A stretch of DNA of 64,000 nt from Squalus acanthias (Eukaryota): positions 45,510,001 through 45,574,000 of the forward strand of contig CM059432.1 of assembly GCA_030390025.1 (NCBI GenBank), given 5' to 3'. The translations under genes and the position numbers were made by a program. The notes under the pieces are model-generated. The model saw only the letters and a program-made list of their open reading frames with translations. It was not told the DNA's origin and ran no database searches. Positions 13,923-50,295 of this stretch are shown one piece after another; the stretch's first letter is position 1; every line of letters begins with the position of its first letter.

Positions 13923-14596
13923 TTTTCAAGGGAGAAGGATTTTTTTTTAGGAGCCATTAAACTGAAGTTTAAATGTTTGAAATTTGTAACCTGTTGGGTC
14001 TCAAACAGTTCCCTGTATCCAATTGGATTGTTCCAGCTATTATTTGCCTGCAGAACATGGTTGCTCTAGCAAGCTACTGATAATTAATAACAATTACACT
14101 GCTGCACAGGTAAACAATTGTTCCCAATTGGCCAGGAATGATGGAAGTTAAAAACAATGGATAGCTTCTGTGGATATAAGTAATAAAGCTCACGGTGTCT
14201 CAAGACTAAGCCATTTGATCATCTGGGTTTGTACACAACGCTGAAGGTCACATATTTAGGATTATTAACTCTCACATGAAAATGGATTGAAAGTACTTAG
14301 CACAGTATGATTCTCTGGCACTCAGTTATTTTTATCATTGCCTAAATCTGCATAGTTCATCATTTAAAGCTCTCATTGTGTACTAACAATAAACCTTTTT
14401 TTATCATGTGTCCATGTGTTCAGCAATTCTTTTATCTGTGCTACCAATTATCTTGTATAGTCCTGCACTGTGACACCTACCGAAATATTGTTCTGGGGCT
14501 CCTGTTTTACAGATTCTGTCCGACTTTCTCGCTAGACCTGTAAATAGAATAGCTTTGCCTAGAGGTGGTGATGAGGATGGGCAATATGCTCCCACA

Positions 14597-15661
14597 TCGT
14601 TACCTCTGGTGTCCCCCCAAGGATCTATCCTTGGCCTCCTCCTATTTCTCATCTATATGTTGCCGCTTGGCGACATCATCCAAAAACATAGCATCAGTTT
14701 CCACATGTACGCTGACGACACCCAGCTCTACCTCACCACCACTTCTCTCGACCCCTCCACGGTCTCTAAATTGTCAGACTGCTTGTCCGACATCCAGTTC
14801 TGGATGAGCAGAAATTTTCTCCAATTAAATATTGGGAAGGCCGAAGCCATTGTTTTCGGTCCCCGCCACAAACTCCGTTCCCTAGCCACTGACTCCATCC
14901 CTCTCCCTAACATCTGTCTGAGGCTGAACCACTCTGTTCGCAACCTTGGTGTCATATTTGACCCTGAAATGAGCTTCCGACCACTTATCCGCAGCATAAC
15001 TAAGAATGCCTATTTCTACCTCCGTAACATTGCCTGTCTCCGCCCTTGCCTCAGCTCATCCGCTGCTGAAAGCATCATCCATGCCTTTGTTACCTCTAGA
15101 CTTGACTATTCCAACGCACTCCTGGCTGGCCTTCCACATTCTACCCTACGTAAACTTGAGGTGATCCAAAACTCGGCTGCCCGTGTCCTAACTCGCACCA
15201 AGTCCTGTTCGCCCATCACCCCTGTGCTCGCTGACCTACATTGGCTCCCGGTTAAGCAACGCCTCGATTTCAAAATTCTCATCCTTGTTTTCAAATCCCT
15301 CCATGGCCTCGCCCCTCCCTAGCTCTGTAATCTCCTTCAGCCCCCCCCTCCCCCCGAGATATCTGTGCTCCTCTAATTCTGCCTTCTTGCGCATCCCTGG
15401 ATTATAATCGCTCAACCATTGGTGGCCGTGCCTTTTGTTGCCTAGGCCCTAAGCTCTGGAATTCCCTGCCTAAAACTCTCTGCCTCTCTATCACTCCTTC
15501 CTCCTTTAAGATGCTTCTTAAAACCTACCTCTTTCCTGCCCTAATTTCTCCTTATGTGGCTCGGTGTCAATTTTTTGTCTTATAATACTCCTGTCTTATA
15601 ATACTGCCTTGGGACTTTTTACTACGGTAAAGGCGCTATATAAATGCAAGTTGTTGTTGTT
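14597..15661 (+). mobile_element. 5'-truncated L2 LINE
   Basis: PQGSILG, YADDTQLY and RLDYSNALL motifs; (GTT)n tail. Confidence 0.95.
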
Positions 15662-18415: not shown

Positions 18416-20932
18416 GTGCATGTGGTGGGGGAGTTATCTTTAACATGAGTCATTGTTGCGGATATTACTGTCACTCACTCTGGTTGCCTGCTCCTTATCA
18501 ATTGTAGCACATTAGAATCAAATTTCTTGCTTTCTGGGGAGTTAATATGACCTTTTAATTGTGCCATTGATTTTGTTCAGAGTTTTTTGCTAGAAAGTAA
18601 GGGGCTCACCTTATACATTGGTCACCTTATATACACAAGTACTTAACTATAAGGATCTATTTTCAAGATTCACTTTAATGCATCGAAAATTGTGGGCTGG
18701 CAAGTGTAGAAGTGGAATTTTTACTCCATTATCCTTTGTTCCATCTAATGAAAACCTGCACAACCTGCTGCAACATAAGTGCTTACGAGATATGTAGGCT
18801 GTAATTCTCCTGCATGATCCCGCCCAAAATCGTGACAGAATGAAAGAAAATGCAAGTGGATAGGCCAACTGCCTCCCTCCATCCCCGTCAAAATTTCCGC
18901 TGGCCTCTCCTTCGGTGCATACCACGTGAAAATGGCTGCAGGGGTGCAGTGGGGCCTGTGTTACTGCTGCTTCCAAGGGTCACCATGCGGAAGGTGGTGG
19001 TCGGCCCTGGGAAGCGTCGCTAAAGGCCCCGAGTCTCCCCATGAAGAGAGAGGGTATTGTAGCACCCTCCTCTCCCTCAAGTCTGACCCCCAACACTTAC
19101 CTGCTGAAGGCCTTGGTTTCAACTGAGGCATTCAGTGATACAGCTGGTCTGCTCTTTGGGGAAATTCTTTAAGGTCCCTCACCAGCTTTTCTGGTGCTGC
19201 AGCAGTGTCACCCCACACTGGCAGGCTCCCTCTTGGTGGTGGGAATCCTGCTGAGAGTCCCCAGTGCCCTGACCTCAGGGTTCAGGAAGATTTGGAATGA
19301 TAGGCATAAATCTTGCTTCACTGCAACTCTGCCCCGAAGTGCAGAATCTCAATAAGAGTATCCATGCATGTGTTTGGGTGGGTGCACTGAGTTCAACCAT
19401 CCCCTACTTAACAGTAATGTGATTGGACAGCACAATCAGCGTACTCCATTAGCATCACAATTAAAAGTACACAAGGCTTCATTGGCTGGTGCTAATATGA
19501 GCATCATAATCATGTGATAATCCAATTAATACAATGCTGTCAGTGTGATATCCTCTATTTAATCAGTGCCTCTGGTTGGATTAAAGTGGGACTAAAGCCT
19601 TTTTTTTCATATAAAGCTTGTGCAGACATATCCTCCTGCTTCACCATCTCTGGGTTTTTTAAGTTTCTGAAACAATAAACAAATAAACCCTTCTATAAAA
19701 TAGTAATTATTATCCAGTGCAAGGGCTAAGTTTTGAATGTTGTGTAGATCTTACGTTGGAATATCAGTACAAGACAAGAGTTATTAATAGTCTCAGTCAT
19801 TTGTGTGAGCTTGATGGTGCAAAAATCAAGAGTTGTAACAACTACTGTTGTTTTAATGTGTAAGTATTACATATGGGTAGCAAATTTACATATGGGTACC
19901 TGCCTTGGTTCCGTAATCCTTAATACCCTTGCCTAACAAAAATCTATCAATCTCAGTTTTGAAATATTCAATTGACCTAGCTTCAACAACTTTTTGGGGG
20001 AGAGAGTTGCAGATTCCCACTACCCTTTGTGTGAAGAAGTGCTTTCTGACATCACCTCTGAATGGCCTAGCTCTAATTTTAAGGTATTCCCCTTTGTTCT
20101 GGACTCTCCCACCAGAGGAAATATTTTCTCTCAATCTACCTATCAAATCTTAAATACTTCAATTAGATCATCCCTTAATCTTCTATATTCAAGAGAATAC
20201 AAGCCTAGTGTATGCAAGCTGTCCTCATAACTTAACCCTTTTAGCCCTGGTATAATTCTAGTGAATCAGCACTGCATCTCCTCCAAGGCCAATATAGCCT
20301 TCCTGAAGTGTGGTGCTCAGAACTGAATGCAATACTCCAGATGGGGTCTAACAAGAGCTCTGTACAGCTGTAACATAACTTCCACCCCTTTGTATTGCAG
20401 CCCTCTTGAGATAAAGGCCAACATTCCATTAGCCTTTTAAATTATTTTTTCTACCTGTCCACCAGCATTTAGTGATTTCTGTACTTGGACCCCTAAATCT
20501 CTGCTCATTCTCAGTTCCTAGCGTCTCGCCATTTAGAAAATACTCTGATCTATCTTTCTTAGATCCAAAGTGGATGACCTCACACTTTCCCACATTGAAT
20601 TCCATCTGCCACAGTTTTGCCCACTCACTTAATCTATCAATGCCCCTTTGCAACTTTCTGGTCCCATCTATACTAGTTACTGTGCCACCTAACTTGGTGT
20701 CATCAGCAACCTTTGATATATGCTTCTCTATTCCTTCATCCGAGTCATTTATCAAAAGCTGTGGCCCCAGTACAGATCCCTGGGGGACACAACTAGTCAC
20801 ATCCTGACAATTTGAGTACATACCCATTATCCCTACTCTGTCTCCTGCCTCCTAACCAATTCCCTATCATAGCCAATAGGTTGCCTCTAATTCCATGCGC
20901 TCTAATTTTTGTTAACAGTCTCTTATGACAAC

Positions 20933-23475
20933 AAACGGCATTAAACGGGAAATTAGAGACGCGTGCAATAAGGGCACAGCAATCATCATGGGTGACTTCA
21001 ATCTACATATAGATTGGGCTAACCAAGTTAGTAACAATACTGTGGAGGAGGAATTCCTAGAGTGTATACGGGATGGTTTCCTGGACCAATATGTCGAGGA
21101 ACCAACTAGAGATCAGGCCATCTTAGACTGGGTATTATGTAATGAGAAAGGATTAATTAGAAATCTTGTTGTGCGAGGCCCCTTGGGGAGGAGCGATCAT
21201 AATATGATCGAATTCTTCATTAAGATGGAGAGTGAAGTAGTTGACTCAGAGACTGCGGTCCTGAATTTAAATAAAGGAAAGTATGAGGCGCGAGTTGGCT
21301 AGGATGGATTGGGGAGCGTTACTTTAAGGGTTGACGGTGGATAGGCAATGGCAAACATTTAAAGATCGCATGGATGAACTACAGAATTTGTTCATCCCTG
21401 TTTGGCATAAAAATAAAACAAAAAAGGTGACTCAACCGTGGCTAACAAGGGAAATTAGGGATAGCATAAGATCCAAGGAGAGGACATATAAATTGGCCAG
21501 AAAAAGCAGCAAACCTGAGGATTGGGAGCAGTTTAGGATTGAGCAAAGGACGACAAAGGGATTAATTAAGAGGGGGAAAATAGAATATGAGAGTAAGCTT
21601 GCAGGGAACATAAAAACTGACTGTAAAAGCTTCTATAGATATGTGAAGAGAAAAAGATTGGTGAAGTCAAGCATAGGTCCCTTGCAGTCAGAATCAGGGG
21701 AATTTATAATGGGGAACAAAGAAATGGCAGGCCAATTAAATACATACTTTGGTTCTGTCTTCACAAAGGAGGACACAAATAACCTCCCAGAGATGTCGGG
21801 GAACATAGGGTCTAATGAGAGGGAGGAATTGAATGAAATCATTATTTGTAGGGAAATGGTGTTAGGGAAATTGACGGGATTGAAGGCCGATAAATCCCCA
21901 GGGCCTGCTAATCTACATCCTAGGGTACTTAATGAAGTGGCACTAGAAATAGTAGATGCATTGCTGGTCATCTTCCAAAATTCTATAGACTCTGGAACAG
22001 TTCCCATGGATTGGAGGGTAGCTAACATAACCCCACTCTTTAAAAAAGGTGGTAGAGAGAAAACAGGGAATTATAGACCGGTAAGCCTGACATCAGTAGT
22101 GGGGAAAATGCTAGAGTTCATTATAAAAGATGTAATAGCAGAGCACTTGGAAAACAGTGACAGGATCGGACAAAATCAACATGGATTTACAAAAGGTAAA
22201 TCATGCTTGACTAATCTACTGGAATTTTTTGAGGATGTAACTGGTAGAATAGATAAGGGAGAACCAGTGGATGTGGTGCATTTGGACTTTCAGAAGGCTT
22301 TTGACAAGGTCCCGCGTAAGAGATTGGCGTGCAAAGTTAAAGCACATGGGATTGGGGGTAAGGTACTGACTTGGATAGAGAACTGGTTGGCAGACAGGAA
22401 GCAAAGAGTTGGAATAAACGGGTCTTTTTCCGAGTGGCAGGCAGTGACTAGTGGGGTACTGCAGGGATCGGTGCTAGGACCCCAGCTATTCACAATATAT
22501 ATTAATGATCTAGACGAGGGAACTAGATGTAATATCTCCAAGTTTGCAGACGACACAAAGCTGGGTGGGCGTGTGTACTGTGAGGAGGATGCAGAGAAAC
22601 TCCAGTATGATTTGGACAGGTTGGGTGATTGGGCAGATGCATGGCAGATGCAGTATAATGTGGATAAATGCGAGGTTATCCACTTTGGTGGCAAAAACAG
22701 GAAGACAGATTATTCTCTGAACGGCAATAGATTTGGAAAAGTGGAAGTGCAACGAGACCTGGGTGTCCTTGTGCACCAGTCGCTGAAGGTAAGTATGCAG
22801 GTGCAGCAGGTGGTTAAGAAGGCAAATAGTATGTTGGCCTTCATAGCGAGAGGATTCGAGTACAGGAGCAAGGATGTCTTGCTGTAGTTGTACAGGGCCT
22901 TGGTGAGACCACACCTTGAGTATTGTGTGCAGTTTTGGTCGCCTTATCTGAGAAAGGATGTTCTTGCCATGGAGGGAGTGCAGCGAAGATTCACCAGACT
23001 GATACCTGGGATGGCAGGAATGACGTATGAGGAGAGATTGGGTCGATTAGGCTTATATTCACTCGAGTTTAGAAGAATGAGAGGGGATCTCATTGAAACT
23101 TATAAAATTCTAACAGGACTAGACAGACTAGATGCAGGAAGGATGTTCCCGATGGCGGGGGAGTCCAGAACCAGAGGTCACAGTCTAAGGATAAGGGGTA
23201 AGCCATTTAGGACTGAGATGAGGAGGAATTTCTTCACCCAGAGAGTGGTGAACCTGTGGAATTCTCTACCACAGAAGGCAGTTGAGGCCAATTCATTAAA
23301 TATATTCAAGAAGGAGTTAGATATATTTCTTAAGGCTAAAGGGACCAAGGGATATGGGGAGAAAGCAGGGACAGGGTACTGAATTTGGATGATCAGCCAT
23401 GATCTCATTAAATGGCGGAGCAGGCTCGAGGGGCCGAATGGCCTACTCCTGCTCCTATCTTCTATGTTTCTATGT
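20933..23475 (+). mobile_element. CR1 LINE (B): partial APE plus RT, with a frameshift near 21.3 kb and TAG at 22885
   Basis: GDFN and SDHN (APE), NYRPVSLTS and FADDTK motifs; TTCTATG tail. Confidence 0.95.
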
Positions 23476-24253
23476 AACATCTTATATTATATAGCACCTT
23501 TAACGCAGTAAAACATCCCAAGGTGCTTCACAGGAGTGTTATCAAACAAAATTGGACACATAAGGCGATATTAGACAGATAACCAAAAGCTTGATCAAAG
23601 AGGTAGTTTTTAAGGAGTGTCTTAAAGGAGGACAGAGAGATAGAGAGGCAGAGATGTTTAGCGAGGGAATTCCAGAGCTTAGAGCTTAGGCAGCTGAAAG
23701 CATGGCTGCCAGTGGTGGAACGATTAAAATCAGGGATGCGCAGGAGGCCAGAATTGGAGGAGCGCAGAAATCTCAGAGGGTTGTAGGGCTGGAGAAAGTT
23801 ACAGAGATAGGGTGGGGCGAGGCAATGGAGGGATTTGAAAACAAGGATGAGAATTTTAAAATCGAGGCATTGCCGGATGTAGCCAATGTAGATCAGCGAG
23901 CACAGGGCTGATGGGTGAACAGGACCTGCTGTGTGTTAGGATATGGGCAGCAGAGTTTTGGATGAGCTCAAGTTTACGAAGGGCGGAAGATGGGAGGCCA
24001 TCAGGAGAGCATTGGAATAGTCAAGTCTAGATGTAACAAAGGCATGGATGAGGGTTTCAGTAGCAGATGAGCTGTGGCAGGGTGGAGTCGGGCTTTGTTA
24101 TGGAGGTAGATATAGGCAATCTCGGTGATGGAGAAGATATGTGGTCGGAAGCTCATCTCGAGGTCAAATACAACACCAAGGTTGCGAAAGGTCTGGTTCA
24201 GTCTCAGACAGTGGCCAGGGAGAGGGATGGAGTTTGTGGCTAAGTAACGGAGT
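23476..24253 (-). mobile_element. L2 LINE 3' fragment (its ACAACAA tail remnant at 20928-20934 is separated by CR1-B)
   Basis: Reverse complement matches the L2 at 14870-15660. Confidence 0.85.
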
Positions 24254-24331
24254 TATGTGGAACCTTATATGGAACCTTGTTAAATGCCTACTGGAAGTCC
24301 ATATAAATAACATCGATAGATACTCCCTTAT

Positions 24332-25830
24332 CTCGGGAACAGTGCCCATGGATTGGAGGGTAGCTAACGTTACCCCACTATTCAAAAAGGGGGGTAGGGA
24401 AAAAGCAGGTAATTACAGACCTGTAAGCCTTACATCAGTTGTGGGCAAAATGCTGGAGTCCATCATTAAGGATGAAATAGCGGAGCACTTAGCAAATGGG
24501 GACAGGATAGGACAGAGTCAACATGGATTTACAAAGGGTAAATCGTGCTTGACTAATCTATTGGAATTTTTTGAGGGAGTAACTGGTAAAATAGATGGGG
24601 GAGAGCCAGTAGATGTGGTGTACCTGGACTTCCAAAAGGCCTTCGACAAGGTCCCACATAAAAGATTAGCATGGAAAATTGAAGCTCATGGGATAAAGGG
24701 GAAAGTATTGACGTGGATAGAGAACTGGCTGTCAGATAGAAAACAGAGAGTTGGAATAAACGGCTCATTTTCTGAATGGCAGGCAGTAACAAGTGGGGTA
24801 CCGCAGGGATCTGTCCTGGGTCCCCAGCTGTTCACAATTTACATTAATGACCTGGATCAGGGAGTCGGATGCAGCATTTCCAAATTTGCAGACGACACTA
24901 AACTAGTAGGGGGGGTGGGCTCAGAGGAGGAGACCAGGAAGCTCCAGAGCGATTTGGACAGACTGGGTGATTGGGCGGATAAATGGTAGATGCACTATAA
25001 TGTGGACAAGTGCGAAGTTATCCACCTTGGGTGCAGGAACGGGAGGGCAAATTATTATTTAAATGGCAATAAATTGGGAGAGGGGGAAGTACAGAGAGAC
25101 CTGGGTGTTCTTGTACACCAGTCACTGAAGGCGAGCATGCAGGTGCAACAGGCGGTCAAGAAGGCAAACGGTATGCTGGCCTTCATAGCAAAAGGGTTGG
25201 AATACAGGAACAGGGATACCTTGCTGCAGCTGTACAGGGCACTGGTGAGACCACACCTCGAGTACTGTGTACAGTTTTGGTCGCCTCATCTGAGGAAAGA
25301 TGTTCTTGCCATGGAGGGGGTGCAGCGGCGATTCACCAGGCTGATACCAGGAATGGCGGGATTGACCTATGAGGAGAGACTATGTAGTTTAGGGATGTAC
25401 ACACTGGAGTTTAGAAGATTGAGAGGGGACCTCATAGAAGTGTATAAAATTCTGACAGGTCTAGACAGACTAGATGCAGAAGGAATGTTTCCCTTGGCGG
25501 GTGAGAACAGAACTAGAGGACATAATTTAAGGATAAGGGCTAAACCATTTAGGACAGAAATGAGGGGGAATTTCTTCACTCAGAGGGTGGTGAACCTGTG
25601 GAATTCATTGCCACAGAGAGCAGTGTACGCCAGCTCATTAAATATATTTAAGAGGGAATTAGATATATTTCTACAGGCAAAAGGGGTTAAGGGTTACGGA
25701 GAGAAGGCGGGGACGGGATACTGAATTGGAGGATCAGCCATGATCTCATTAAATGGCGGAGCAGGCTCGAAGGGCCGGATGGCCTACTCCTGCTCCTATC
25801 TTCTATGTATCTATGTATCTATGTATGTAT
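24332..25830 (+). mobile_element. 5'-truncated CR1 LINE (C), single nonsense codon at 24987
   Basis: Continuous RT frame across one TAG; (TCTATGTA)n tail. Confidence 0.95.
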
Positions 25831-26284: not shown

Positions 26285-29200
26285 TTTTTTTTGATTCGTT
26301 TTTATGGGATCTGGGTGGCACTGGCAAGGCCAGCAATTATTGCCCATCCCGAATTGCCCTTGAGAAGGTGGTGGTGAGCCGCCTTCTTGAACCGTTGCAG
26401 TCCGTGTGGTGAAGGTACTCCCACAGTGCTGTGAGGTAGGGAGTTCCAGGATTTTGACCCAGCGACGATGAAGGATCGGTGATATACTTCTAAGTCAGGA
26501 TGATGTATGACTTCGAGGGGAACTTGGAGGTGGTGGTGTTCCCATGTGTCTGCTGCCCTTGTCCTTCTAGGTGGTAGAGGTCACGGGTTTGGGAGGTGCT
26601 GCCGAAGAAGCCTTGGCGAGTTGCTGTAGTGCATCTTGTAGATGGTACACACTGCAGCCACGTTACGCCAGTGGTGGAGGGAGTGAAGTTTAAGGTGGTA
26701 GAGGGGATGCCCATCAAGTGGGCTGCTTTGTCCTGGATGGTGTCGAGCTTCTTGAGCGTTGTTGGAGCTGCACTCATCCAGGCAAGTGGAGCGTATTCCA
26801 TCACACTCCTGACTTGTGCCTTGTAGATGGTGGAAAGGTTTTGGGGAGTCAGGAGGTGAGACACTCGCCACAGAATACCTAGCCTCTGACCTGCTCTTTT
26901 AGCCACAGTATTTATGTGGCTGGTCCAGTTAAGTTTCTGGTCAATGGTGACCCCAGGATGTTGATGGTGGGGGATTCGGCGATGGTAATGCCGAACAGGA
27001 CGGTTTGCACCTGAACCAGAGTGGCACCAATATCCTGGGAGGGAAATTCGCTACGGCTCTTCGGGGGGGTTTAAACTAATTTGTCAGGGGGATGGGAAAA
27101 AGGGCTGTAGTCCAGGAGCCAGTGGTGAGTGTAGGGAGGTACTGAGGAGGGTATCAATGTCGCAGGAATGTACCGGCAGACAGGAAGATGGCTTGAAGTG
27201 TGTCTACTTCAATGCAAGGAGCATCCGGAATAAGGTAGGAGAACTTGGAGCGTGGATTGGTACTTGGGACTACGATGTGGTGGCCATTACGGAGACATGG
27301 TTAGAACAGGAACAGGAATGGTTGTTGGAAGTTCCGGGGTATAGATGTTTCAGTAAGAGTAGGGAAGGTGGTAAGAAAGGTGGAGGAGTAGCATTGTTAA
27401 TCAAGGATAGTTTAACAGCGGCAGAAAGGCAGTTCGAGTGGGATCTGCCGTCTGAGGTAATATGGGCTGAAGTTAGAAATAGGAAAGGAGCGGTCACGTT
27501 GTTAGGAGTTTTCTACAGGCCCCCAAATAGTAATAGAGATGTGGAGGAAGAAATTGCAAAGCAGATTATGAATAGGTGTGGAGGTCACAGAGTAGTTGTC
27601 ATGGGTGACTTCAACTTTCCAAATATTGATTGGAACCTTTATAGGTCAAACAGTTCGGATGGGATAGTTTTTGCACAGTGTGTGCAGGAGGGTTTCCTGA
27701 CACAATATGTGGATAGGCCGACAAGAGGTGGGGCCACATTGGATTTGGTACTGGGTAATGAACCAGGCCAAGTGTTTGATTTGTATGTGGGAGAGCACTT
27801 TGGAGATAGTGACCACAATTCGGTGACTTTCACTATTGCAATGGAGAGGGATAGGGCCATGCGGCAGGGCAGGGTTTATAATTGGGGGAGGGGTAATTAT
27901 GATGCGATTAGGCAAGAATTAGGGAGCATAAGATGGGAACAGAAACTATCAGGGAAAGGCACAAACAAAAAGTGGAGCTTTTTCATGGAGCAATTACTGC
28001 GTGTCCTTGATAGGTATGTCCCTGTCAGGCAGGGAGGAAATGGCCGAGTGAGAGAACCATGGTTCACAAAAGAGGTTGAATGTCTAGTCAAGAGGAAAAA
28101 GGAAGCGTATGTAAGGATGAGAAAACAAGGTTCAGTTGGGTCGATTGAGGGGTACAAGGTAGCAAGGAATGAGCTAAAAAAAGAGCTTAGGAGAGCTAGG
28201 AGGGGGCATGAGAAGTCCTTGGCGGGTCGGATCAAGGAAAACCCCAAGGCTTTTTACTCTTATGTGAGAAATAAAAGAATGACCAGGGTGAGGGTAGGGC
28301 CGGTCAAGGACAGTAGTGGGAACTTGTGCATGGAGTCAGAAGAGATAGGAGAGGTGATGAATGAATACTTTTCGTCAGTGTTCACCGAGGAGAGGGGCCA
28401 TGTTTTTGAGGATGAGAGTGTGATAAAGGTGGATAGGCTGGAGGAGGTAGATGTTCTGAGGGAAGATGTTTTAGCAATTTTGAAGAACCTGAGGGTCGAT
28501 AAGTCCCCTGGGCCAGATGGGATATATCCTAGGATTCTTTGGGAGGCAAGGGAGGAGATTGCAGAGCCTTTGGCTTTGATCTTTGGGTCCTCACTGTCCA
28601 CGGGGATGGTGCCAGAGGACTGGAGAGTGGCGAATGTTGTTCCTCTCTTCAAGAAAGGAAATAGGAATGACCCTGGTAATTATAGGCCGGTTAGTCTTAC
28701 TTCGGTGGTTGGTAAGATAATGGAAAAGATCCTGAGGGATAGGATTTATGACCATTTGTAAAGAGGCAACTTAATCCGGGATAGTCAACACGGATTCGTG
28801 AAGGGTAAGTCTTGCCTAACAAATTTGATTGAATTCTTTGAGGAGGTAACTAAGTGTGTAGATGAAGGTAGAGCAGTTGATGTCGTATACATGGATTTTA
28901 GTAAGGCGTTTGATAAGGTTCCCCATGGTCGGCTCATGAAGAAAGTAAGGAGTTGTGGGATAGAGGGAAATTTGGCCGATTGGATAAGTAACTGGCTATC
29001 TCATAGAAGGCAGAGGGTGGTGGTGGATGGAAAATTTTCGGACTGGAGAGACCAGTTACCAGCGGTGTGCCACAGGTGTCGGTGCTGGGTCCTCTGCTGT
29101 TTGTGATTTTTATCAATGACTTGGAGGAGGGGACTGAAGGGTGGATCAGTAAATTTGCTGATGACACCAAGATTGGTGGAGTAGTGGATGAGGTGGAGGG

Positions 29201-32200
29201 CTGTTGTAGGCTGCAAAGAGACATTGATAGGATGCAGAGCTGGGCCGAAAAATGGCAGATGGAATTTAACCCTGATAAGTGCGAGGTGATTCATTTTGGT
29301 AGGGCAAATTTGAATAAGGATTACAGGGTCAACGGCAGGGTTCTGAGGAACGTGGAGGAACAGAGGGATCTGGGGGTTCATATCCACAGATCTCTGAAGG
29401 TTGCCACTCAAGTGGATAGAGCAGTAAAGAAGGCCTATAGTGTGTTAGCGTTTATTAACAAGGGGTTTGAGTTTAAGAACCGTGAGGTTATGCTGCAACT
29501 GTACAGGACCTTGGTGAGACCACATTTGGAATATTGTGTGCAGTTCTGGTCACCTCACTATAGGAAGGACGTGGAAGCATTGGAAAGAGTGCAAAGGAGA
29601 TTTACCAGGATGCTGCCTGGTTTGGGGGGGAGGTCTTATGAGGAAAGATTGAGGGAGCTAGGGCTTTTCTCTTTAGAGCAGAGGAGGATGAGAGGCGACT
29701 TAATAGAGGTTTATAAGATGATGAGGGGGATAGATAGAGTGGATGTTCAGAGACTATTTCCTCGGGTGGATGTAGCTGTTACAAGGGGGCATAACTATAA
29801 GGTGCATGGGGGGAGATATAGAAGGGATGTCCGAGGTAGATTCTTTACTCAGAGAGTGGTTGGGGTGTGGAATGGACTGCCTGCTGTGATAGTGGAGTCG
29901 GACACTTTAGGAACTTTCAAGCGGTTATTGGATAAGCACATGGAGCACACCAGAATGATAGGGAGTGGGATAGCTTGATCTTGGTTTCGGACAATGCTCG
30001 GCACAACATCGAGGGCCGAAGGGCCTGTACTGTGCTGTACTGTTCTATGTTCTATGTTCTATGAATGTCAAGGGGTGGCATTTAGACTCTCGCTTGTTGG
30101 AGATAGTCATTGCCTGGCACTTCTGTGGTGCAAATGTTACCTGCCACTTATCAGCCCAAGCCTGAACGTCGTCCAGGTCTTGTTGCATGCGGGCATGGAC
30201 TGCTTCATTATCTGAGGAGTTGTGAATGGCACTGAACACTGCACAGTCATCAGCGAACATCCCCATTTCTGACCTTATGTTGGAGGGAAGGTCATTGATG
30301 AAGTAGCTGAAGATGGTTGGGCCTAGGACACTGCCCTGAGGAACACCTGCAGCGATGTCCTGGGGCTGTGATGATTGATCTTCAATTACCACAACCATCT
30401 TCCTTTGTGCTAGGTATGACTCCAACCAGTGGAGAGTTATCCCCCCGATTTCCATTGACTTCAGTTTTATTCGGGCTCCTTGATGCCACACTCGGTCAAA
30501 TGCTGCCTTGATGTCAAGGGCAGTCACTCTCACCTCACCTCTGGAATTCAGCTCCTTTGTCCATGTTTGGACCAAGGCTATAATGAGGTCGGGAGCCGAG
30601 TGGTCTTGGCGGGACCCAAACTGGGCATCAGTGAGCAGGCTATTGGTGAGCAAGTGCCGCTTGATAGCACTGTCGATGACACCTTCCATCACTTTGCTGA
30701 TGATTGAAAGTAGACTGATGGGGTGGTAATTGGCCGGATTGGATTTGTCCTGCTTTTTGTGGACAGGACATACCTGGGCAGTTTTCCACTTTGTCAGATA
30801 GATGCCAGTGTTGTAGCTGTACTGGAACAGCTTGGCTAGAGGCGCGGCTACTTCTGGACCACAAGTCTTCAGCACAATAGCCGGGATGTTGTCAGGGCCC
30901 ATAGCCTTTGCTGTATCCAGTGCGCTGAGCTGTTTCTTGATATCACGTGGAGTTAATCCAATTGGCTGAAGACTGGTTTCTGTGATGGTGGGGACCTCAG
31001 GAGGAGGTCGATATGGATCATCCACTCGGCACTTCTGGCTGAAGATGGTTGCAAACGCTTCAGCCTTGTCTTTTGCGCTCGCGTGCTGGGCTCCACCATC
31101 ATTGAGGATGGGGATATTCATGGAGCCTTATCCTCCCGTTAGTTGTTTAATGGTCCACCACCATTCAAGACTGCATGTGGCAGGACTGCAGAGCTTTGAT
31201 CTGATCCGTTGATTGTGGGATCACTTAGCCCTGTCTATAGCATGCTGCTTCTGCTTTTTAGCATGCATGTAGTCCTGTGTTGCAGCTTCCCCAGGTTGGC
31301 ACCTCATTTTTAGGTACGCCTGGTGCTGCTCCTGGCATGCTCTTCTACACTCCTTATTGAACCAGGGTTGGTCCCCTGGCTTGATGGTAATTGTAGAGTG
31401 AGGGGTATGCTGGGCCATGAGGTTACAGATTGTGGTGGAATACAATTCTGCTGCTGCTGATGGCCCACAACGCCTCATGGATGCCCAGTTTTGAGCTGGT
31501 AGATCTGTTCTGAATCTATCCCATTTAGCACGGTGGTAGTGCCACACAACACGATGGAGGGTGTCCTCAGTGTGAAGACGGGACTTCGTCTCCACAATGA
31601 CTGTGCGGTGGTCACTGCTACGAATACTGTCATGGAGAGATGCATCTGCGACAGGTAGATTGGTGAGGATGAGGTCAAATAGGTTTTTCTCTCGTGTTGG
31701 TTCTCTCACCACCTGTCGCAGGTCCAGACTGGCAGATATGTCCTTCAGGACTCGGCCAGTAGTGGTGCTACCGAGCCACTCTTGGTGATGGACATTGAAG
31801 TCCCCCCACCCAGAATACATTCTGTGCCCTTGCTACTCTCAGTGCTTCTTCCAAGTGGTGTTCAATATGGGGGAAGTACTGATTCATCAGCTGAGGGAGG
31901 GCGGTAGGTGGTAATCAGCAGGAGGTTTCCTTGCCCATGCTTGACCTGAAACCATGAGACTTCATGGGGTCCAGAGTCAATGTTGAGGACTCCCAGGGCC
32001 ACTCCTTCTCGACTGTACACCACTCCTGGGTGGTACAGGACATACCCAGGGATGGTGATGGAGGAGTTTGGGACATTTGCTGAAAGGTATGATTCTGTGA
32101 GGATGACTATGTCAGGCTGTTGCTTGACTAGTCTGTGGGACAACTCTCCCAATTTTGGCACAAGTTCCCAGATGTTGGTGAGGTTGGACTTTGCAGGGTT

Positions 32201-32603
32201 GACTGTGCCATTGCCGTGTCCGTAGCCGGTGCCGGGTGGCCCATCCGGTTTCATTTTTATTATTTTGTTTCGTAGCGGTTTGTTACAACTGAGTGGCTTG
32301 CTAGGCCATTTCAGAGGGCAATTAAGAGTCAACCACATTGCTGTGGGTCTGGAGTCACATACAGGCCAGACCAGGTAAGGACGGCAGATTTCCTTCCCTA
32401 AAGGACATTAGGGAAACAGATGGGTTTTTATGACAAAATGATTGTTTCATGGTTACCATTGCTAATAATTATTCCAGATTTATTTAATTAACTGAATTTA
32501 AATTTCCCAGCTGTCGTGGTGGGATCTGAACTCACGTTTAACTGGATCATTAGTCCAGGCCTCATGAATTACTAGCCCAGTGACATTACCACTACGCTAC
32601 CGT
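26285..32603 (-). mobile_element. Full-length CR1/Zenon-like single-ORF LINE (Z1) with a tRNA-derived head, interrupted by CR1-D
   Basis: Head 32510-32603; APE (PDIVILTESYL, YRPP, GDFN, SDH); RT (NYHPISLLS, PQGSVLGP, FADD); 3' stem-loop and A tail. About 3.25 kb without the insert. Confidence 0.9.
26993..30063 (+). mobile_element. CR1 LINE (D): end of ORF1 plus near-complete ORF2 (27157-29978)
   Basis: DGLHLN esterase-type ORF1 end, APE and RT; TAA at 28759 and a 2-nt slip near 29048; (TTCTATG)n tail. Confidence 0.95.
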
Positions 32604-32789
32604 TTTCTTGTGTTAAATATCATGGATAAAAACTGTTACCATTTTAACTTGTATAACATGAGTAATCACCTTGACCTTCTTCACTATCGGTCTACCAGGG
32701 ATCAGTTACATGAATACGCATCATGAGGCCACATATCCCACCAGCTATCATCTTTATTTAATCACACTATAAAATCACAGTTTCCCATG

Positions 32790-33640: not shown

Positions 33641-35371
33641 GAAAGTAAGCGCTCTTAGTGATGGATAGGGTATGCTACTGTTGGTTCTCAGTCTCTCAAG
33701 CATTTCAAAGTACTTCACATGCAATAAATTTCTTTGAAATGCAGCAATTGTTATTATGTAGGCAAACATGGTAGCCATTTTGTGCACATCAAGATCAAAT
33801 GGTAATGAGTTTCATAACCTGTTATCTGTTGGCTGAAAAAGGAATGTTGACTGATCATGGAGAGAGTTCCCTATGCAATGTCATATTTAGAATTTTCATA
33901 CCCACATGCCATTTGATAAAAGTATCTCTGTATCAGCATAATTAATGAGCCATTTTTGGTGAAATATAATTCACAAAAAGCTTATTATAGCCATACAGCT
34001 ACATTCAAAACTTATGTATATCCCTACCTCAGTGATTAGGCTCTTTGAGCCCCCCATGTAGGCAGTATAGAGCAGTACACCCTTTTTTTACACTCCTTGA
34101 TGAGTTGCTAAGGCTCATTAGAAATTCATAGCTGTCAACCTTATTCAAAATATAACATATTCATGACTGAACCAATTACTATATATTTATATTTATTTGA
34201 AAATCGTGAATTAGACTCCATCTCAAGATCGTTACTAGGGACACAGCAAAAACTTTTTTTTTATTCGTTCATGGGATGTAGGCGCCGCTGGCAAGGCCAG
34301 CATTTATTGCCCATCCCTAATTGCTCTTGAGAAGGTGGTGGTGAGCTGTCTTCTTGAACCGCTGCAGTCCGTGTGGTGAAGGTACTCCCACAGTGCTGTT
34401 AGGGAAGGAGTTCCAGGATTTTGACCCAGCGACGATGAAGGAACGGCCAAAAATTTCCAAGTCAGGATGGTGTGTGATTTGGAGGGGAACTTGCAGGTGA
34501 TGGTGTTCCCATGCACCTCCTGCCATTGTCCTTCTAGGTAGTAGAGGTTGTGGGTTTGGGAGGTGCTGTCAAAGAAGCCTTGGCAAGTTGCTACAGTGCA
34601 TCTTGTAGATGGTACACACTGCAGCCATGGTGCGCCGCTGGTGGAAGGAGTGAATGTTTAAGGTGGTGGATGGGGTGCCAATCAAGCGGACTGCTTTGTC
34701 TTGGATGGTGTCGAGCTTCTTGAGTGCTATTGGAGCTGCACTCATCCAGGCAAATGGAGAGTATTCCATCACACTCCTGACTTGTGCCTTGTAGATGGTG
34801 GAAAGGTTTTGGGGAGTCAGGAGGTGAGACACTCGCCGCAGAATACCCAGCCTCTGACCTGCTCTTGTAGCTACAGTATTTATGTGGCTGGTCCAGTTAA
34901 GTTTCTGGTCAATGGTGACCCCCAGGATGTTGACGGTGGGAGATTTGGCAATAGCAATGCTGTTGAATGTCAAGGAACGGTGGTTAGACTCTCTCTTGTT
35001 GGAGATAGTCATTGCCTGGCATTTGTGTGGCGCGAATGTTACTTGCCACTTATCAGGCCAAGTCTGAATGTCGTCCAGGTCTTGCTGCATGCGGGCAAGG
35101 ACTGCTTCATTATCTGAGGAGTTATGAATGGAACTGAACACTGTGCAATCATCAGTGAACACCCCTACTTATGACCTTATGATGGAGGAAAGGTCATTGA
35201 TGAAGCAGCTAAAGATGGTTGGGCCTAAGACACTGCCCTGAGTAACTCCTACAGCGATGTCCTGGGGCAGAGATGATTGGCCTCCATCAACCACAACCAT
35301 CTTCCTTTGTGCTAGGTATAACTCCAGCCAGCAGAGAGTTTGCCCCCTGATTCCCATTGACTTCAATTTTA

Positions 35372-36515
35372 ATGTGCAACATTAAAGCACATGGGATTAG
35401 GGGTAATATACTGGCATGGATTGAAAATTGGTTAACAGACAGGAAACAGAGAGTAGGAATAAATGGGTCTTTTTCGGGGTGGCAGGCGGTGACTAGTGGG
35501 GTACCGCAGGGATCAGTGCTTGGGCCCCAGCTATTCACAATATATATCAATGATTTAGATGAGGGAACCAAATGTAATATTTCCAAGTTTGCTGACGACA
35601 CGAAACTAGGTGGGATTGTGAGTTGTGAGGAGGATGCAAAGAGGCTTCAAGGTGATTTAGACAAGTTGAGTGAGTGGGCAAATACATGGCAGATGCAGTA
35701 TAACGTGGATAAATGTGAAGTTATCCACTTCGGTAGGAAAAACAGAAAGGCAGAGTATTATTTAAAGGGTGATAGATTGGGAAATGTTGATGTACAAAGG
35801 GACCTGGGTGTCCTTGTACACCAGTCACTGAAAGCAAACATGCAGCTGCAGCAAGCAGTTAGGAATGCAAACAGTATGTTGGCCTTCATTGCAAGAGGAT
35901 TTGAGTGCAGAAGCAAGGATGTCTTAATACAGTTATACAGGGCCTTGGTGAGACCACACCTGGAGTAGTGTGTGCAGTTTTGGTCTCCTTACCTAAGAAA
36001 GGATGTACTTGCCATAGAGGGAGTGTAACGAAGGTTCACCAGACTGATTCCTGGGATGGCAGGAGAGATTGGGTCGACTAGGCCTGTATTCAATAGAGTT
36101 TAGAAGAATGAGAGGGGATCTCATTGAAATGTATAAAATTCTGACAGGGCTAGACAGACTGGATGCAGGGAGGATGTTTCCCCTGGCTGGGGTGTCTAGA
36201 ACGAGGGGTCACAGTCTCAGGATATGGGGTAGGACATTTAGGACTGAGATGAGGAGAAATTTCTTCACTCAGAGGGTGGTGAACCTATGGAATTCTCTAC
36301 CACAGAAGGCTGTGGAGGCCAAGTCACTGAATATATTTAAGAAGGAGATAGATAGATTTCTAGACAGAAAAGGCATCATGGGGTATGGGGAGAGAGCGGG
36401 AATATGGTATTGAGATAGAGGATCAGCCATGATCATATTGAATGGTGGAGCAGGCTGAAAGGGCCGAATGGACTACTCCTGCTCTTATTTTTCTATGTTT
36501 TCTATGTTTTTTCTT
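35372..36515 (+). mobile_element. 5'-truncated CR1 LINE (E)
   Basis: RT motifs PQGSVLGP and FADDTK; several stops; TTCTATG tail. Confidence 0.93.
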
Positions 36516-37101
36516 CTAGGGCTCTTTGATGCTACACTCAGTCAAATGCTGCCTTGATGTCAAGGGCAGTCACTCTCACCTCACCTCTGGAATTCAGTTC
36601 TTCTGTCCATGTTTGGACCAAGGCTATAATGAGGGCTGGAGCCGAGTGGTCCTGGCAGAACCTAACTGAGCATCAGTGAGCAGGTTATTGGTGAGCAAGT
36701 GCCGCTTGATAGCACTCTCGATGACACCTGCCATCACTTCGCTGATGATTGAGAGTAGCCTGATGGGGCGGTAATTGGCCGGATTGGATTTGTCCTACTT
36801 TTTGTGGACAGGACATACCTGGGCAATTTTCCACATTGTCGGGTAGATGCCAGTGTTGTAGCTGTACTGGAACAGCTTGGCTGGAGGCGCAGCTAATTCT
36901 GGAGCACAAGTCTTCAGTACGACAGCTGGGATGTTGTCTGGGCCCATAGACTTTGCTGTATCCAGTGCGCTCAGCCGTTTCTTGGTATCACGTGGAGTGA
37001 ATTGAATTGGCTGAAGACTGGCTTCTGTGATAGTGTGGCCTTCAGGAGAAGTCCGAGCTGGATCATCCACTCGGCACTTCTGGCTGAAGATGGTTGCAAA
37101 C

Positions 37102-38410
37102 AGTACTGAAACTGCTCTTACCAAGGTCACAAATGACATTCTAATTGACTGCGACAAAGGTAATCTATCCCTTCTCGTCCTTCTGGACCTGTCTGCAGCC
37201 TTTGCATGGTTGTCCACAAAATTCTGCTCCAATGCTTCTCTACCGTCATCAAGCTGAATGGGACTGCACTCGCCTGGTTTCATTCCTATCTTTCTAACCG
37301 TAACCATAGAATTACCTGCAATGGCTTCTCTTCCCAATCCCGCGCTGTCACCTCTGGTGTCCCCCAAGGATTTATCCTTCGCCCCCCTCTTATTTCTCAT
37401 CTACATGCGGCCCCTCGGTGACATCATCCGGCAACTCAACGCAAGTTTTCACATGTATGCTGATGATACCCAGCTCTACCTCTCCTCCACCTCTCTCAAA
37501 CCTTCCACCATCTCTAGACTATCAAACTGCTTGTCCGACATCCAACAATGGATGAGTAGAAATTTGCTCCAATTAATTATCAGGAAGACCGAAGCCATTG
37601 TCTTCGGTTCACGCTACAAACTCCATTCCCTTTCCACTGATTCGCCCTCTCGCCCCGGCAACTGTCTGAGGCTGGCCAAGTCTGTTCGCAACCTTGGTGT
37701 CATATTTGATCACGGATTGAGTTTCCTACCTCATATCCATTCTATCACTAAGACTGGCCATTTCCACCTTTGTAATATCACCCATCTCCACCCTTTCTTC
37801 AACTTATCTGCTGGTGAAACCCTCATCCATGCCTTTATCACCTCTAGACTTGATTATTCCATTGCACTCCTGGCCGGCCTCCCTAGTTTTACCCTCCATA
37901 AACTTGAGGTTATCCAAAACTCTGCCGCCCGTGTGCTAACTCGCACCAAGTCCCGTTCACCCATCACCCCTGTGCTTGCTGACCTACATTAAGCTACGCC
38001 TCGATTTAAAAATTCTCATCCTTGTTTTTAAATCTGTCCATGGCCTCATCCCTCCTTATCTCTGTAATCTCCTCCAGCCCTATAATCCCTCGAGATCTCT
38101 GCACTCCACCTATTCTGGACTTTGGAACATCACCGATTTTAAATGCTCCACCATTGGCAGTCGTGCCTTCAGCTGCCTAGGTCCTAAGTTCTGGAATTCA
38201 CTCCCTAAATCTCTCCAGCTCTCCACTTCTCTTTCCTCCTTTAAGATTCTCCTTAAAACGTACCTCGTCGACAAAGCTTTTGGTTCTCTGCCCTAACATC
38301 TCCTTATGTGGCTCGGTGCCAAATTTGATAACACTCCTGTGAAGCGCCTTGAGACGTTTTATTATGTTAAAGGCACTATATAAATATAAGTTGTTGTAAT
38401 TTGTTGTTGT
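37102..38410 (+). mobile_element. 5'-truncated L2 LINE
   Basis: STETAL, LDLSAAF and YADDTQLY motifs; (GTT)n tail. Confidence 0.93.
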
Positions 38411-39495
38411 TCAGCCTTGTCTTTTGCACTCGCGTGCTGAGCTCCACCATAATTGAGGATGGAGATATTCATGGAGCCTCCTCCTCCCGTTAGTTGTTTA
38501 ATGGTCCACCACCATTCATGACTTGATATGGCAGGACTGCAGAGCTTTGATCTGATCCGTTAATTGTGGGATCGCTTAGCCCTGTCTATAGCATGCTGCT
38601 TCCGCTTTTTAGCATGCATGTAGTCCTGTGTTGCAGCTTCCCCAGGTTGGCACCTCATTTTTAGGTACGCCTGGTGCTGCTCCTGGCATGCTCTTCTACA
38701 CTCCTTATTGAACCAGGGTTGGTCCCCTGGCTTGATGGTAATTGTAGAGTGAGGGATATGCCGGGCCATGAGGTTACAGATTGTGGTGGAATGCAATTCT
38801 GCTGCTGCTGATGGCCCACAGTGCCTCATGGATGCCCAGTTTTGAGCTGCTAGATCTGTTCTGAATCTATCCCATTTAGCACAGTGGTAGGGCCACACAA
38901 CACGATGAAGGGTGTCCTCAGTATGAAGATGGGACTTTGACTCCACCTCATAATACAGTATATGTAATGATGCAGGACTGAGGCTGTGTAGGTGTCTTTT
39001 TGAACTCTCAAACACCGTGCCTGATTTAATGGGGCAGCTGCCAAATCAAACAAATAAAGACAGAACCACTTCATATTTGTCGTATGTTATTGCTGAGCCT
39101 CAGATAGGAAGTACGGAACACTGCTGCCGGAAAGATTTTCACCACCTCTCAAACTCAAAGCACACTTAATCCAATCATCCCTATCCTGCATGGTGTTGAG
39201 TGCCGGAGGACCTTTAAGAAAGCAGATGTTTCTCTGAATGGCTTACAGGGACCCATCTCCAAATTGGTAGGCATTACCTACCATCTTGCTTGGTAACTTG
39301 GGCTTTACAAAAGGCAAGATATAGGTCAAGGTAATAATAATGAAGGCCATTGAATTCCAGTTTTCACGGAAAAATGGAAAATGCTGTAGAATTCGATCCT
39401 AAAAATATTGGCAACTGTCCCAAAATACCATATAATAAAAATGCAATTTGACTTATTCAGTCATCACAAGCCAATAGTTCTGGTAATGATACATT

Positions 39496-50100: not shown

Positions 50101-50295
50101 CAAATGGATTTTTACGACAATCCGATAGCTTTATAGTTACCATTACTGATACTAGCTTTTTATTCCAGATTTATTTAATTAACTGAATTTAAATTCCCCA
50201 GCTGCCGTGGTAGGATTGGAACTCACGTCTCTGGATCATTAGTGCAGGCTTCTGGATTACTAGCCCAGTGACATTACCACTACACTACCGTTCCC
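47161..50295 (-). mobile_element. Full-length uninterrupted Zenon-like single-ORF LINE (Z2) with a tRNA-derived head; many small deletions
   Basis: Colinear with Z1 from head to A tail; A box 50287-50277 and B box 50224-50213. Confidence 0.92.

Follow-up and report, generated by a model that had tools for sequence, protein, structure and literature searches.

A LINE family of Squalus acanthias with a tRNA-like head and a sense strand free of shared Pol III terminators

LINEs are regarded as Pol II genes and SINEs as their Pol III parasites. A 64,000-nt stretch of the Squalus acanthias genome (assembly GCA_030390025.1, contig CM059432.1, positions 45,510,001 to 45,574,000; hereafter the window) raises the question of whether this division holds for a LINE family, here called Z, which begins with a tRNA-like head and is nearly devoid, on its sense strand, of runs of four or more T (T4+). 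The first-pass annotation had attributed this scarcity to selection for read-through by Pol III, a reading that our analysis partly supports. Indeed, the depletion of T4+ is real, ancestral and strand-specific, and is absent from other LINEs; its cause has to be weighed against several alternatives.

Anatomy of the Z family

The Z family is a ~3.25-kb LINE with one ORF of ~2.9 kb encoding endonuclease and reverse transcriptase (EN+RT). Self-BLAST placed five copies in the window, amounting to 10,738 nt of sense strand. Z1 (26285-32603, minus strand, 5′ end revised to ~32607) is interrupted by a nested 3,068-bp insert (26993-30060), an unrelated EN+RT LINE lying antisense within it, with Exo_endo_phos and RVT_1 matches in ORFs of the plus strand. 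The 5′ part of Z1 (30061-32607, minus; self-BLAST and Pfam) carries the tRNA-like head, the leader and ~2.2 kb from the beginning of the ORF, with a presumed start codon at 32252-32254 (ATGAAACC...), and the 3′ part (26285-26992, minus) contains the ORF C-terminus, a short 3′ end and an A-rich tail. A second full-length copy, also headed and on the minus strand, occupies 47168-50295 and starts with GGGAACGG. Two further minus-strand copies are 5′-truncated, one of them continuous (59006-60590) and the other split by insertions (34254-35371, 36509-37101 and 38410-38946), and a 530-bp 3′-terminal fragment lies on the plus strand (4351-4880).

By its reverse transcriptase domain, its endonuclease domain and the shared 3′ end of its 5′-truncated copies, the family is an APE-type non-LTR retrotransposon. 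Pfam RVT_1 was detected on the genomic copy L001 (1784-3391, E=1.6e-35) and in the window (30048-31127, minus, E=1.1e-35), and Exo_endo_phos_2 in the window (31224-31832, minus) at 32.3 bits for a cut-off of 27.4; the latter match is weaker on L001, under the cut-off, and homologues of the family have PF03372/PF14529. The 5′-truncated copies share one 3′ terminus, which is A-rich rather than a microsatellite. CR1 elements, the clade named with Zenon in the first-pass annotation, have a microsatellite-type 3′ end. A target-site-duplication search of 21 copies yielded longest flanking repeats of 4-9 nt in an inconsistent pattern. The closest full-length relatives show 36-37% identity, and 29 of the 30 loci taken from the matches of a Pfam RVT_1 search of the genome belong to the family. 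The copies examined are all decayed, the longest clean stretch of the family ORF being 756 codons; a 971-aa open frame in copy L071 was rejected as an intact element, the family ORF running there in frame into an unrelated nested LINE.

The tRNA-like head of Z1 (32520-32607, minus) has its A box at 32589-32599 and its B box at 32522-32531, and is separated from the ORF by a leader (32255-32519, minus) with eight upstream ATGs and two AATAAA motifs common to most copies. This head is recognized only below threshold: the Rfam tRNA model matches that of L001 at 22.3 bits (E=0.025, model positions 7-64), under the gathering score, and scans of the window for tRNAs by ARAGORN and by Rfam at gathering thresholds were empty. 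No ribozyme was found in the window by Rfam at gathering thresholds. A regular expression for the A and B boxes nevertheless matched 10 of 12 Z copies, and ARAGORN called a tRNA in one of eight Z loci. Full copies (21 compared) begin with GGGA+ACGG, 8 nt 5′ of the A box and ~4 nt beyond the limit set earlier (~32607 in Z1, 50295 in the second full copy). Judging from these copy ends, transcription from a type-2 Pol III promoter would be expected to initiate here, and the two boxes together with a start just 5′ of the A box suggest a type-2 Pol III unit. Processing of the head by RNase P/Z was considered and rejected, as the Rfam match spans model positions 7-64 only and the complement of the acceptor stem appears not to be visible.

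The head is an integral part of the LINE: each of the 20 loci picked by their head continues into the ORF and, conversely, 12 of 20 loci picked by their endonuclease region reach position 15 or lower, three end within the head, four end at 259-342 and one leaves the fetched piece; no alternative 5′ end was found among these 20. A SINE-like deletion derivative was also detected, in which the leader serves as body and is joined to the last ~70-100 nt of the element (joints from ~484-524 to ~3307-3342 of copy L016, in short contigs of ~130-200 nt from four runs of unrecorded library type). By analogy, this derivative would be the usual sort of Pol III-driven partner. Z elements thus share with SINE2 elements a 5′ tRNA-related head with A and B boxes (at a sub-threshold Rfam match), but at 3.25 kb and with an EN+RT ORF they are neither short nor non-coding, and only the deletion derivative fits that class in full. 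At the other end, an AATAAA lies ~55 nt 5′ of the 3′ terminus in 20 of the 21 copies.

Scarcity of T runs on the sense strand

The initial scan had found only three sense-strand T4+ runs in roughly 10 kb of family sequence, and this count proved exact: the 10,738 nt contain three, versus 54 A4+, 36 C4+ and 25 G4+. They correspond to plus-strand A runs at 32435-32438 (in the leader of Z1, unshared in the 21-copy alignment), 34449-34453 (a T5 in the split copy) and 48194-48197 (in the second full-length copy), each private to one copy; the 3′ part of Z1, the continuous truncated copy and the 530-bp fragment contain none. Two accompanying remarks also held, namely that the sense strand is rather T-poor (T=0.19-0.22 in the window copies) and that even TTT is scarce (T3+ 13 in Z1, versus A3+ 52, C3+ 50 and G3+ 34).

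The proposal that the consensus lacks T4+ was likewise borne out beyond the window, as no T4+ site is common to at least 50% of 21 aligned genomic copies, versus 15 sites for A, 11 for C and 9 for G. Among these near-full copies, 12 have no T4+, seven have one, one has two and one has three. Nine of the ten T4+ sites in the alignment are private to one copy, and neutral decay does create such runs. Over all the Z sense sequence analysed (198.9 kb), T4+ occurs 24 times, versus 920 A4+, 674 C4+ and 479 G4+. Termination measurements described in PMC8466645 give TTTT, TCTTT, TATTT and TGTTT (TTTT/TVTTT) as minimal Pol III terminators. None of these occurs at a site shared by the 21 copies, versus 28 AAAA and 8 AAAVA complements on the same strand, although seven shared TTT sites persist. 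The family therefore displays the type-2 unit feature of having no internal T4+ or TVTTT before its 3′ end.

The T4+ count alone is, however, underpowered and not significant, whether dinucleotides are preserved (~2 expected in the Z element, P(0)~0.10) or codons (1.2-2.3 expected, P=0.06-0.25), so that the suggested depletion against shuffles keeping composition or protein did not hold for T4+ taken alone. It did emerge from extended-motif and codon-junction tests, which were selected in the course of the analysis. In a dinucleotide shuffle of the whole element, TTTT/TVTTT motifs were 0 versus 4.59 expected (P(0)=0.0074), whereas antisense-equivalent motifs were close to expectation (21.3 versus 24.6). 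In two Z pieces, which count as one test rather than two since they stem from one ancestor and are partly the same sequence, CpG-aware synonymous shuffles gave 0 terminator motifs versus 3.43 (P=0.017) and 1 versus 3.24 (P=0.07); T|T at codon junctions showed a ~2-fold deficit (7 versus 15.2, P=0.0065; 11 versus 21.8, P=0.002), and T3+ runs were reduced as well (5 versus 9.2 and 6 versus 11.0, P about 0.015). The avoidance is thus visible at the synonymous level. The signal sits in the avoidance of TT, as a low TT frequency makes run lengths fall roughly geometrically, and this avoidance could have another cause than Pol III.

No avoidance of T runs or terminators was seen in comparator LINEs, which comprised 19 non-family LINE ORF pieces from the same genome and 30 distant relatives without detectable head, the loci of the latter gathered by a search with a 4-row alignment. 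These comparators are distant, at 23-38% amino acid identity in the case of the metagenome relatives and ~25% in that of the single same-genome piece so compared. The same-genome pieces, 5′-truncated fragments that may derive from headed or headless elements, had 54 T4+ versus 47.9-53.8 expected, 230 T|T versus 222.7 and 84 terminator motifs versus 84.9. Their observed/expected ratio for TT was about 1.0-1.2, versus 0.63-0.80 in the Z family. Headless relatives, proposed from the start as a control, are not equally depleted overall (T4+ 321 versus 285.8 and motifs 516 versus 481.6 in 75 kb), but three very T-poor ones, L100-L102 (T=0.13-0.18), carry only 0-2 T4+, so that composition alone can nearly clear a LINE of terminators. 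When the counts of the 49 ORFs are regressed on T content (Poisson model, overdispersion 1.3-1.4), the T content of Z calls for 7.3-8.8 T4+ and 9.7-11.9 motifs, from which Z deviates at P about 1e-3 to 1e-5. The LINE nested in Z1, initially labelled CR1-D, had already been cited for its more than ten runs; the 11 runs counted are confirmed, but they lie on its antisense strand, since its sense strand is the plus strand of the window, and its own sense strand has 13.

Read-through by Pol III and its alternatives

In our view, the depletion is best explained by selection for read-through by Pol III, a reading with about an even chance of being correct; the absence of terminators fits transcription by Pol III, ordinarily a maker of small RNAs only, but does not prove it. 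The retrotransposition-competent Z RNA would start at +1 of the tRNA-derived head, most likely being made by Pol III from the internal A/B-box promoter, and the active lineage would have been held clear of the four terminators on its sense strand, allowing the polymerase to cross ~3.25 kb. This clearing would be mainly synonymous, through low T, low TT, a preference for TTC over TTT and the avoidance of T-ending codons before T-starting ones, and dead copies would afterwards acquire T runs randomly. The ORF would then be translated cap-independently behind a leader with eight upstream AUGs. Against this, the AATAAA shared near the 3′ end is compatible with 3′ processing of the ordinary Pol II type, but according to PMC8466645 T+ SINEs use AATAAA as well.

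An unlikely but not negligible alternative is that composition explains everything: a T- and TT-poor, C/A-rich strand would reflect a codon or mutational bias of the lineage, transcription would be by Pol II, either through host read-through or from an internal promoter with its start at +1, and the head would descend from a SINE/LINE template switch, amplified along with the LINE as a relic. LINEs are established as Pol II-transcribed, and the AATAAA, the T-poor headless relatives and a T4+ count within chance when dinucleotides or codons are kept all agree with it. Codon usage, however, cannot yield the T|T junction deficit, as the shuffles keep protein and codon usage; A runs on that strand occur about as often as expected, for which reason a strand-symmetric mutation bias was rejected; and the other LINE ORFs predict, at equal T content, 7-12 sites, those of the same genome having TT ratios well apart from those of Z. 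Furthermore, a promoter 3′ of the head would give headless full-length copies, none of which was seen among the endonuclease-picked loci. Pure chance, in which one ancestral 3.25-kb sequence happened to be free of T runs and passed this state to its copies, is highly improbable: all copies come from one lineage, making the effective sample a single sequence, and P(0) for T4+ is about 0.10 under dinucleotide shuffles, but junction T|T, extended motifs (P=0.007-0.017) and the comparator regression all point the other way.

It is also improbable that U runs are avoided for an RNA-level reason apart from Pol III termination, for instance because internal U runs would affect RNA stability, pair with the A-rich tail that the element needs for priming, or act as U-rich processing signals. 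Such a cause would suit an effect that is specific to the sense strand, visible already at TT and TTT, and wider than the avoidance of T4 strictly needs. Nevertheless, T|A junctions are not depleted after CpG correction (40 versus 35.9; 47 versus 52.7), which led us to reject evasion of UU/UA-type nucleases, and neither are C|C, C|T and T|C, which led us to reject avoidance of pyrimidine tracts; comparator LINEs with A-rich tails show no such avoidance, and the tRNA head at +1 would be left unexplained. Self-targeting by a T-run-specific endonuclease was rejected too, as both strands would be affected.

Relation to known elements and significance

Of the known systems, those tRNA-derived SINEs (SINE2) whose tail comes from a LINE resemble Z in their A/B-box head at the exact 5′ end, their 3′ tail shared with a LINE, their absence of internal T4+ and the leader or body common to the SINE-like and LINE forms. 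The difference is that the Z head sits, besides on a short non-coding derivative, on a full-length LINE with its EN+RT ORF. In the bipartite model, which includes SINEs with a LINE 5′ UTR body, the head joins a LINE with an internal deletion, and Pol II is assumed to transcribe the LINE proper (Kojima 2018, PMC5786205). The T+ SINEs (B2, Dip, Ves), like Z, have an AATAAA shortly before an A-rich tail, accompanied in their case by a Pol III terminator (PMC8466645); the Z 3′ end has neither TCTTT nor T4+, so that Pol III would have to terminate in flanking DNA.

The R2 and L1Tc LINEs carry a 5′ HDV-like ribozyme, and the 5′ end of R2 RNA is cut from a 28S rRNA co-transcript (PMC3414825, PMC3185411). 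As would be the case in Z, the 5′ end of these LINE RNAs is set independently of a cap and of a Pol II promoter of the ordinary kind, though by ribozyme cleavage of a co-transcript rather than by the presumed internal Pol III promoter. As to the ORF, R2 is a precedent for the translation of uncapped LINE RNA. Template-switch chimeras of the U6/L1 type likewise have a Pol III-type small RNA sequence 5′ of LINE sequence. The junctions of these chimeras vary, and the chimeras are not known to propagate, whereas all full-length Z copies sampled inherited one fixed order of head, leader and ORF.

Taken as a whole, the Z family may be an autonomous LINE that Pol III transcribes from a tRNA-type promoter, that is, the source of a natural, terminator-free 3.25-kb coding Pol III transcript translated without a cap behind its eight-AUG leader, with deletion products that are ordinary tRNA-SINEs; we give this sequence-based picture a chance just short of even. 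Against it stands that Pol III is not known to make RNAs of about 3 kb in nature. In the literature searched, whose scope left subscription papers and Repbase reports outside, we found no autonomous LINE described as carrying a tRNA-derived head. If the picture is true, a LINE with a SINE-type promoter, rid of Pol III stop signals, would make the line between LINEs and SINEs less sharp, and a natural long protein-coding Pol III transcript would make cap-independent translation testable. SINE heads and bodies could then arise together by internal deletion of a headed LINE, and a single Pol III unit would exist in two lengths, a short SINE and a long LINE.

A headed LINE family and its surroundings

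Self-comparison of the window identified a repeat family of approximately 3.25 kb on the minus strand, present in five copies. Two are full, namely Z1 (26285-32603, minus), interrupted at 26993-30060 by a nested insertion of 3,068 bp, and a second copy at 47168-50291 (minus); the others comprise a truncated copy (59006-60590, minus), a fragmented truncated copy (34254-35371, 36509-37101 and 38410-38946, minus) and a 530-bp 3' fragment (4351-4880, plus). All five copies, four minus and one plus, lie within 64 kb (4351-60590). The ORF pieces of the family encode RVT_1 together with an apurinic-type endonuclease domain, and it is therefore a single-ORF LINE. The leader contains eight ATGs upstream of the ORF start, common to most copies, and AATAAA lies approximately 55 nt before the 3' end in 20 of 21 copies.

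The element begins with a tRNA-like head, which in Z1 displays an A box at 32589-32599 (minus; TAGCGTAGTGG) and a B box at 32522-32531 (minus; GTTCAGATCC). ARAGORN and Rfam at gathering thresholds detected no tRNA in the window; the Rfam tRNA model matched the homologous head of L001, a fetched genomic locus, at model positions 7-64 (22.3 bits, E = 0.025, below the gathering score). The majority of full copies open with GGGA immediately 5' of ACGGTAGCG, 8 nt upstream of the A box. Z1 has GAAA where other full copies have GGGA, and its start is accordingly placed near 32607.

This head is part of the LINE genome-wide. A first look at the 3.7 Gb assembly gave at least 7,934 candidates for the head query and at least 3,962 for the endonuclease-region query. 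Twenty loci were selected among the best head matches, and all of them run on into the ORF (12 contiguous full elements, four interrupted or rearranged, four broken off part-way through the ORF before the fetched piece ends). Among 20 loci picked by the endonuclease region alone, none had an alternative 5' end: 12 extend to family position 15 or less, three end inside the head (67, 84 and 93), four end at 259-342 and one leaves the fetched piece after an insertion.

Every copy is decayed (mean pairwise identity 91-94%), the longest unbroken family ORF stretch being 756 codons, at locus L071. There, a seemingly intact 971-aa frame (L071:1826-4738, minus) is a chimera in which these 756 codons happen to continue in frame into the endonuclease domain belonging to an unrelated LINE nested there; all three of its sense-strand runs of four or more T (T4+) fall within the foreign part. 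Z1 and the L071 copy are independent, and in both a member of one and the same other LINE family is inserted close to the RT C-terminal region, the two insertions being oppositely oriented. Elsewhere, an older head and leader copy (L054:871-1198, minus; 76% identity) has a tandem duplication of approximately 22 nt within the leader and an insertion of approximately 745 bp ahead of the ORF start, and the 5' end of another copy carries head positions ~23-62 a second time in inverted orientation, resembling a 5' inversion (L032:446-520). A SINE-like deletion form, with the leader fused directly to the final ~70-100 nt, adjoins locus L016 (L016:3530-3790). Contig joints linking L016 ~484-524 to ~3307-3342, which denote a SINE-like or short internally deleted form, occur as several junction variants in four public runs from different organisms.

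The window also holds ORF pieces of a PIF/Harbinger-type transposase (DDE_Tnp_4), one long (348 aa, E = 1.9e-35) and three fragmentary, at 11937-12980, 41536-41949 and 55992-56387 (minus) and 61788-62201 (plus), and fragments of other endonuclease- and RT-bearing LINEs at 20916-25721, 35351-35965, 37258-37989 and 14474-15319 (plus) and 20432-20851 (minus). Among these, the fragments akin to the nested insert show a sense strand rich in G and poor in C (G approx. 0.33, C approx. 0.14), a skew opposite to that of the headed family.

T runs and minimal terminators on the sense strand

The first-pass annotation had reported only three sense-strand T4+ in the family, each private to one copy. Both points hold: the 10,738 nt of family sequence in the window contain three T4+ (32435-32438, 34449-34453 and 48194-48197, one copy each), versus 54 A4+, 36 C4+ and 25 G4+. 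Its contrast with more than ten T runs in the LINE nested within Z1 also stands, but the 11 runs then counted were antisense, since the sense strand of that LINE is the window plus strand; the sense strand has 13. Among 21 near-full genomic copies, T4+ number zero in 12, one in seven, two in one and three in one. Their alignment bears out the proposed T4+-free consensus, as no T4+ site is common to at least half of the copies (versus 15 for A, 11 for C and nine for G) and nine of the 10 T4+ sites each occur in one copy only. Across the 198.9 kb of sense sequence gathered for the family, we counted 24 T4+ (0.12 per kb) versus 920 A4+, 674 C4+ and 479 G4+. T4+ sites being nearly all private and none common to half of the copies, the active ancestor lacked them and dead copies gained them randomly.

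The depletion of T4+ itself did not prove significant against composition- and protein-preserving shuffles. Base composition alone predicts approximately 4.8 T4+ (regional iid sums), the sense strand is TT-poor (observed/expected 0.63-0.80), and dinucleotide-preserving shuffles predict approximately 2.0 per copy (P(0) approx. 0.10). Synonymous shuffles keeping protein and codon usage give 1.7 for the 756-codon L071 piece (P = 0.13) and 2.3 for three L001 pieces (P = 0.06), or 1.2 and 2.1 (P = 0.25 and 0.09) when codons before G are fixed as a control for CpG decay. A single 3-kb sequence offers too little power. Absence of T runs by mere chance, which these values would tolerate, is in our view very improbable given the counts that follow.

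Avoidance is indeed visible at synonymous level. T-ending codons before T-starting codons (T|T) number 7 versus 20.2 expected and 11 versus 26.0 in the L071 and L001 pieces (0 of 1,000 shuffles each), and, with the CpG control, 7 versus 15.2 (P = 0.0065) and 11 versus 21.8 (P = 0.002); runs of three or more T follow (5 versus 9.2, P = 0.0175; 6 versus 11.0, P = 0.015). The two pieces share one ancestor and partly overlap, so that they amount to one junction test, and this test, like that on minimal terminators, was picked in the course of the analysis. After CpG, no junction dinucleotide is depleted as strongly as T|T, and A|A falls just slightly short of expectation (z about -1.6). T|A junctions are not depleted, which argues against evasion of UU/UA nucleases, nor are T|C, C|T and C|C, which argues against pyrimidine-tract avoidance.

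In the part of the source consulted, TTTT is described as terminating Pol III on approximately 65% of transcripts of B2 constructs, TCTTT on 50%, TATTT on 42% and TGTTT on 20%, TTTT reaching approximately 95% in a tRNA gene and TTT and TCTT being minor terminators (PMC8466645). Taking these rates as a prediction, we counted the sites common to family copies: TTTT, TCTTT, TATTT and TGTTT have none, and TTT retains seven. On the same strand, the complementary motifs are present (AAAGA 1, AAATA 3, AAACA 4, AAAA 28). The absence is thus strand-specific: whole-element dinucleotide shuffles predict 4.59 terminator motifs per copy (P(0) = 0.0074), versus 21.3 observed and 24.6 expected for the antisense-equivalent set. 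CpG-aware synonymous shuffles give 0 versus 3.43 (P = 0.017) and 1, private, versus 3.24 (P = 0.07).

Other LINEs as comparators

From the window and the flanks of fetched loci, 19 non-family LINE ORF pieces (15.2 kb, truncated, so that possible heads would not be visible) show no T-run avoidance: T4+ 54 versus 53.8 expected (47.9 with the CpG control), T|T 230 versus 222.7 and terminator motifs 84 versus 84.9. Loci were also sought with an alignment built from the family protein plus its best relatives; this yielded 31 metagenome contigs that encode relatives (23-38% identity). ARAGORN found a tRNA in none of the 31, Rfam (E <= 0.1) had no match in the 18 loci scanned, and the A..B box pattern was seen in none of the 31, versus 10 matches in the positive control of 12 family copies. 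About half of the contigs, no more, have at least 250 nt upstream of the ORF, so that a head could escape detection in the others. These relatives with no detectable head are not equally depleted, a result favourable to the first-pass proposal: 30 ORFs (75.4 kb) have 321 T4+ versus 285.8 expected, 1,563 T|T versus 1,431.6 and 516 terminator motifs versus 481.6. None of at least 2 kb lacks T4+, and those of similar T content (0.21-0.23) have 1 to 18 apiece. When counts in the 49 comparator ORFs are regressed on T content (Poisson), the family would be expected to have 7.3-8.8 T4+ and 9.7-11.9 terminator motifs, P(0) being approximately 7e-4 to 7e-6 (overdispersion 1.3-1.4).

Three distant relatives of very low T content (T = 0.13-0.18), contigs L100-L102, have just 0-2 T4+, matching their own shuffles, so composition alone can approach zero. 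No tRNA head was detected in these three, whose sense strand is rich in A runs (22-43 A4+ per locus).

The best full-length protein relatives are 36-37% identical to the family. Fragments at 70-86% identity occur within annotated proteins of two shark species, and the family is therefore present in several related species. Four shark gene models (P0003, P0030, P0031 and P0039) join 10-28% of the LINE protein to host proteins, among them aldo-keto reductase and an anoctamin-7-like protein; these fusions are probably annotation artefacts.

Possible transcription by Pol III

The first-pass annotation had proposed selection for read-through by Pol III. Junction and terminator tests, together with the comparators, make this case stronger than T4+ counts alone did, so that the proposal is partly supported, with Pol III as the candidate polymerase. 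The AATAAA near the 3' end speaks against Pol III, and we know of no natural 3-kb Pol III transcript. A lineage-specific composition combined with Pol II transcription is possible but less likely, as such an account leaves both the T|T effect at codon junctions and the head-bearing 5' ends unexplained. Avoidance already at the TT level, broader than the T4 rule requires, is a further point against Pol III; that U runs are avoided for some other RNA-level reason nevertheless seems quite improbable to us.

Both ends of the family behave like those of a tRNA-derived SINE, whereas its middle is LINE-like. The nearest idea described is that SINE bodies have a bipartite-LINE origin (PMC5786205); as far as the portion consulted goes, the head there joins a LINE that has already undergone deletion, and no autonomous LINE with a head is mentioned. 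From the consulted portions of reports on R2 and L1Tc, LINE RNA 5' ends can form without a Pol II promoter (PMC3414825, PMC3185411).

As full-length copies keep the head and start there, the template RNA must begin at its first base. Type-2 (A/B-box) promoters position Pol III initiation at such a start, and Pol III could thus initiate at the first base of the head. Selection would have purged the 3.25-kb unit of all minimal terminators, strand-specifically and via synonymous sites, permitting read-through; Pol III would then stop in flanking DNA, and the ORF, behind its leader with eight ATGs, would be translated cap-independently. Read-through of this headed LINE by Pol III is the likeliest of the readings, though to us an even call; such a unit would require the strand-specific purge of terminators, which is absent from 49 other LINE ORFs.
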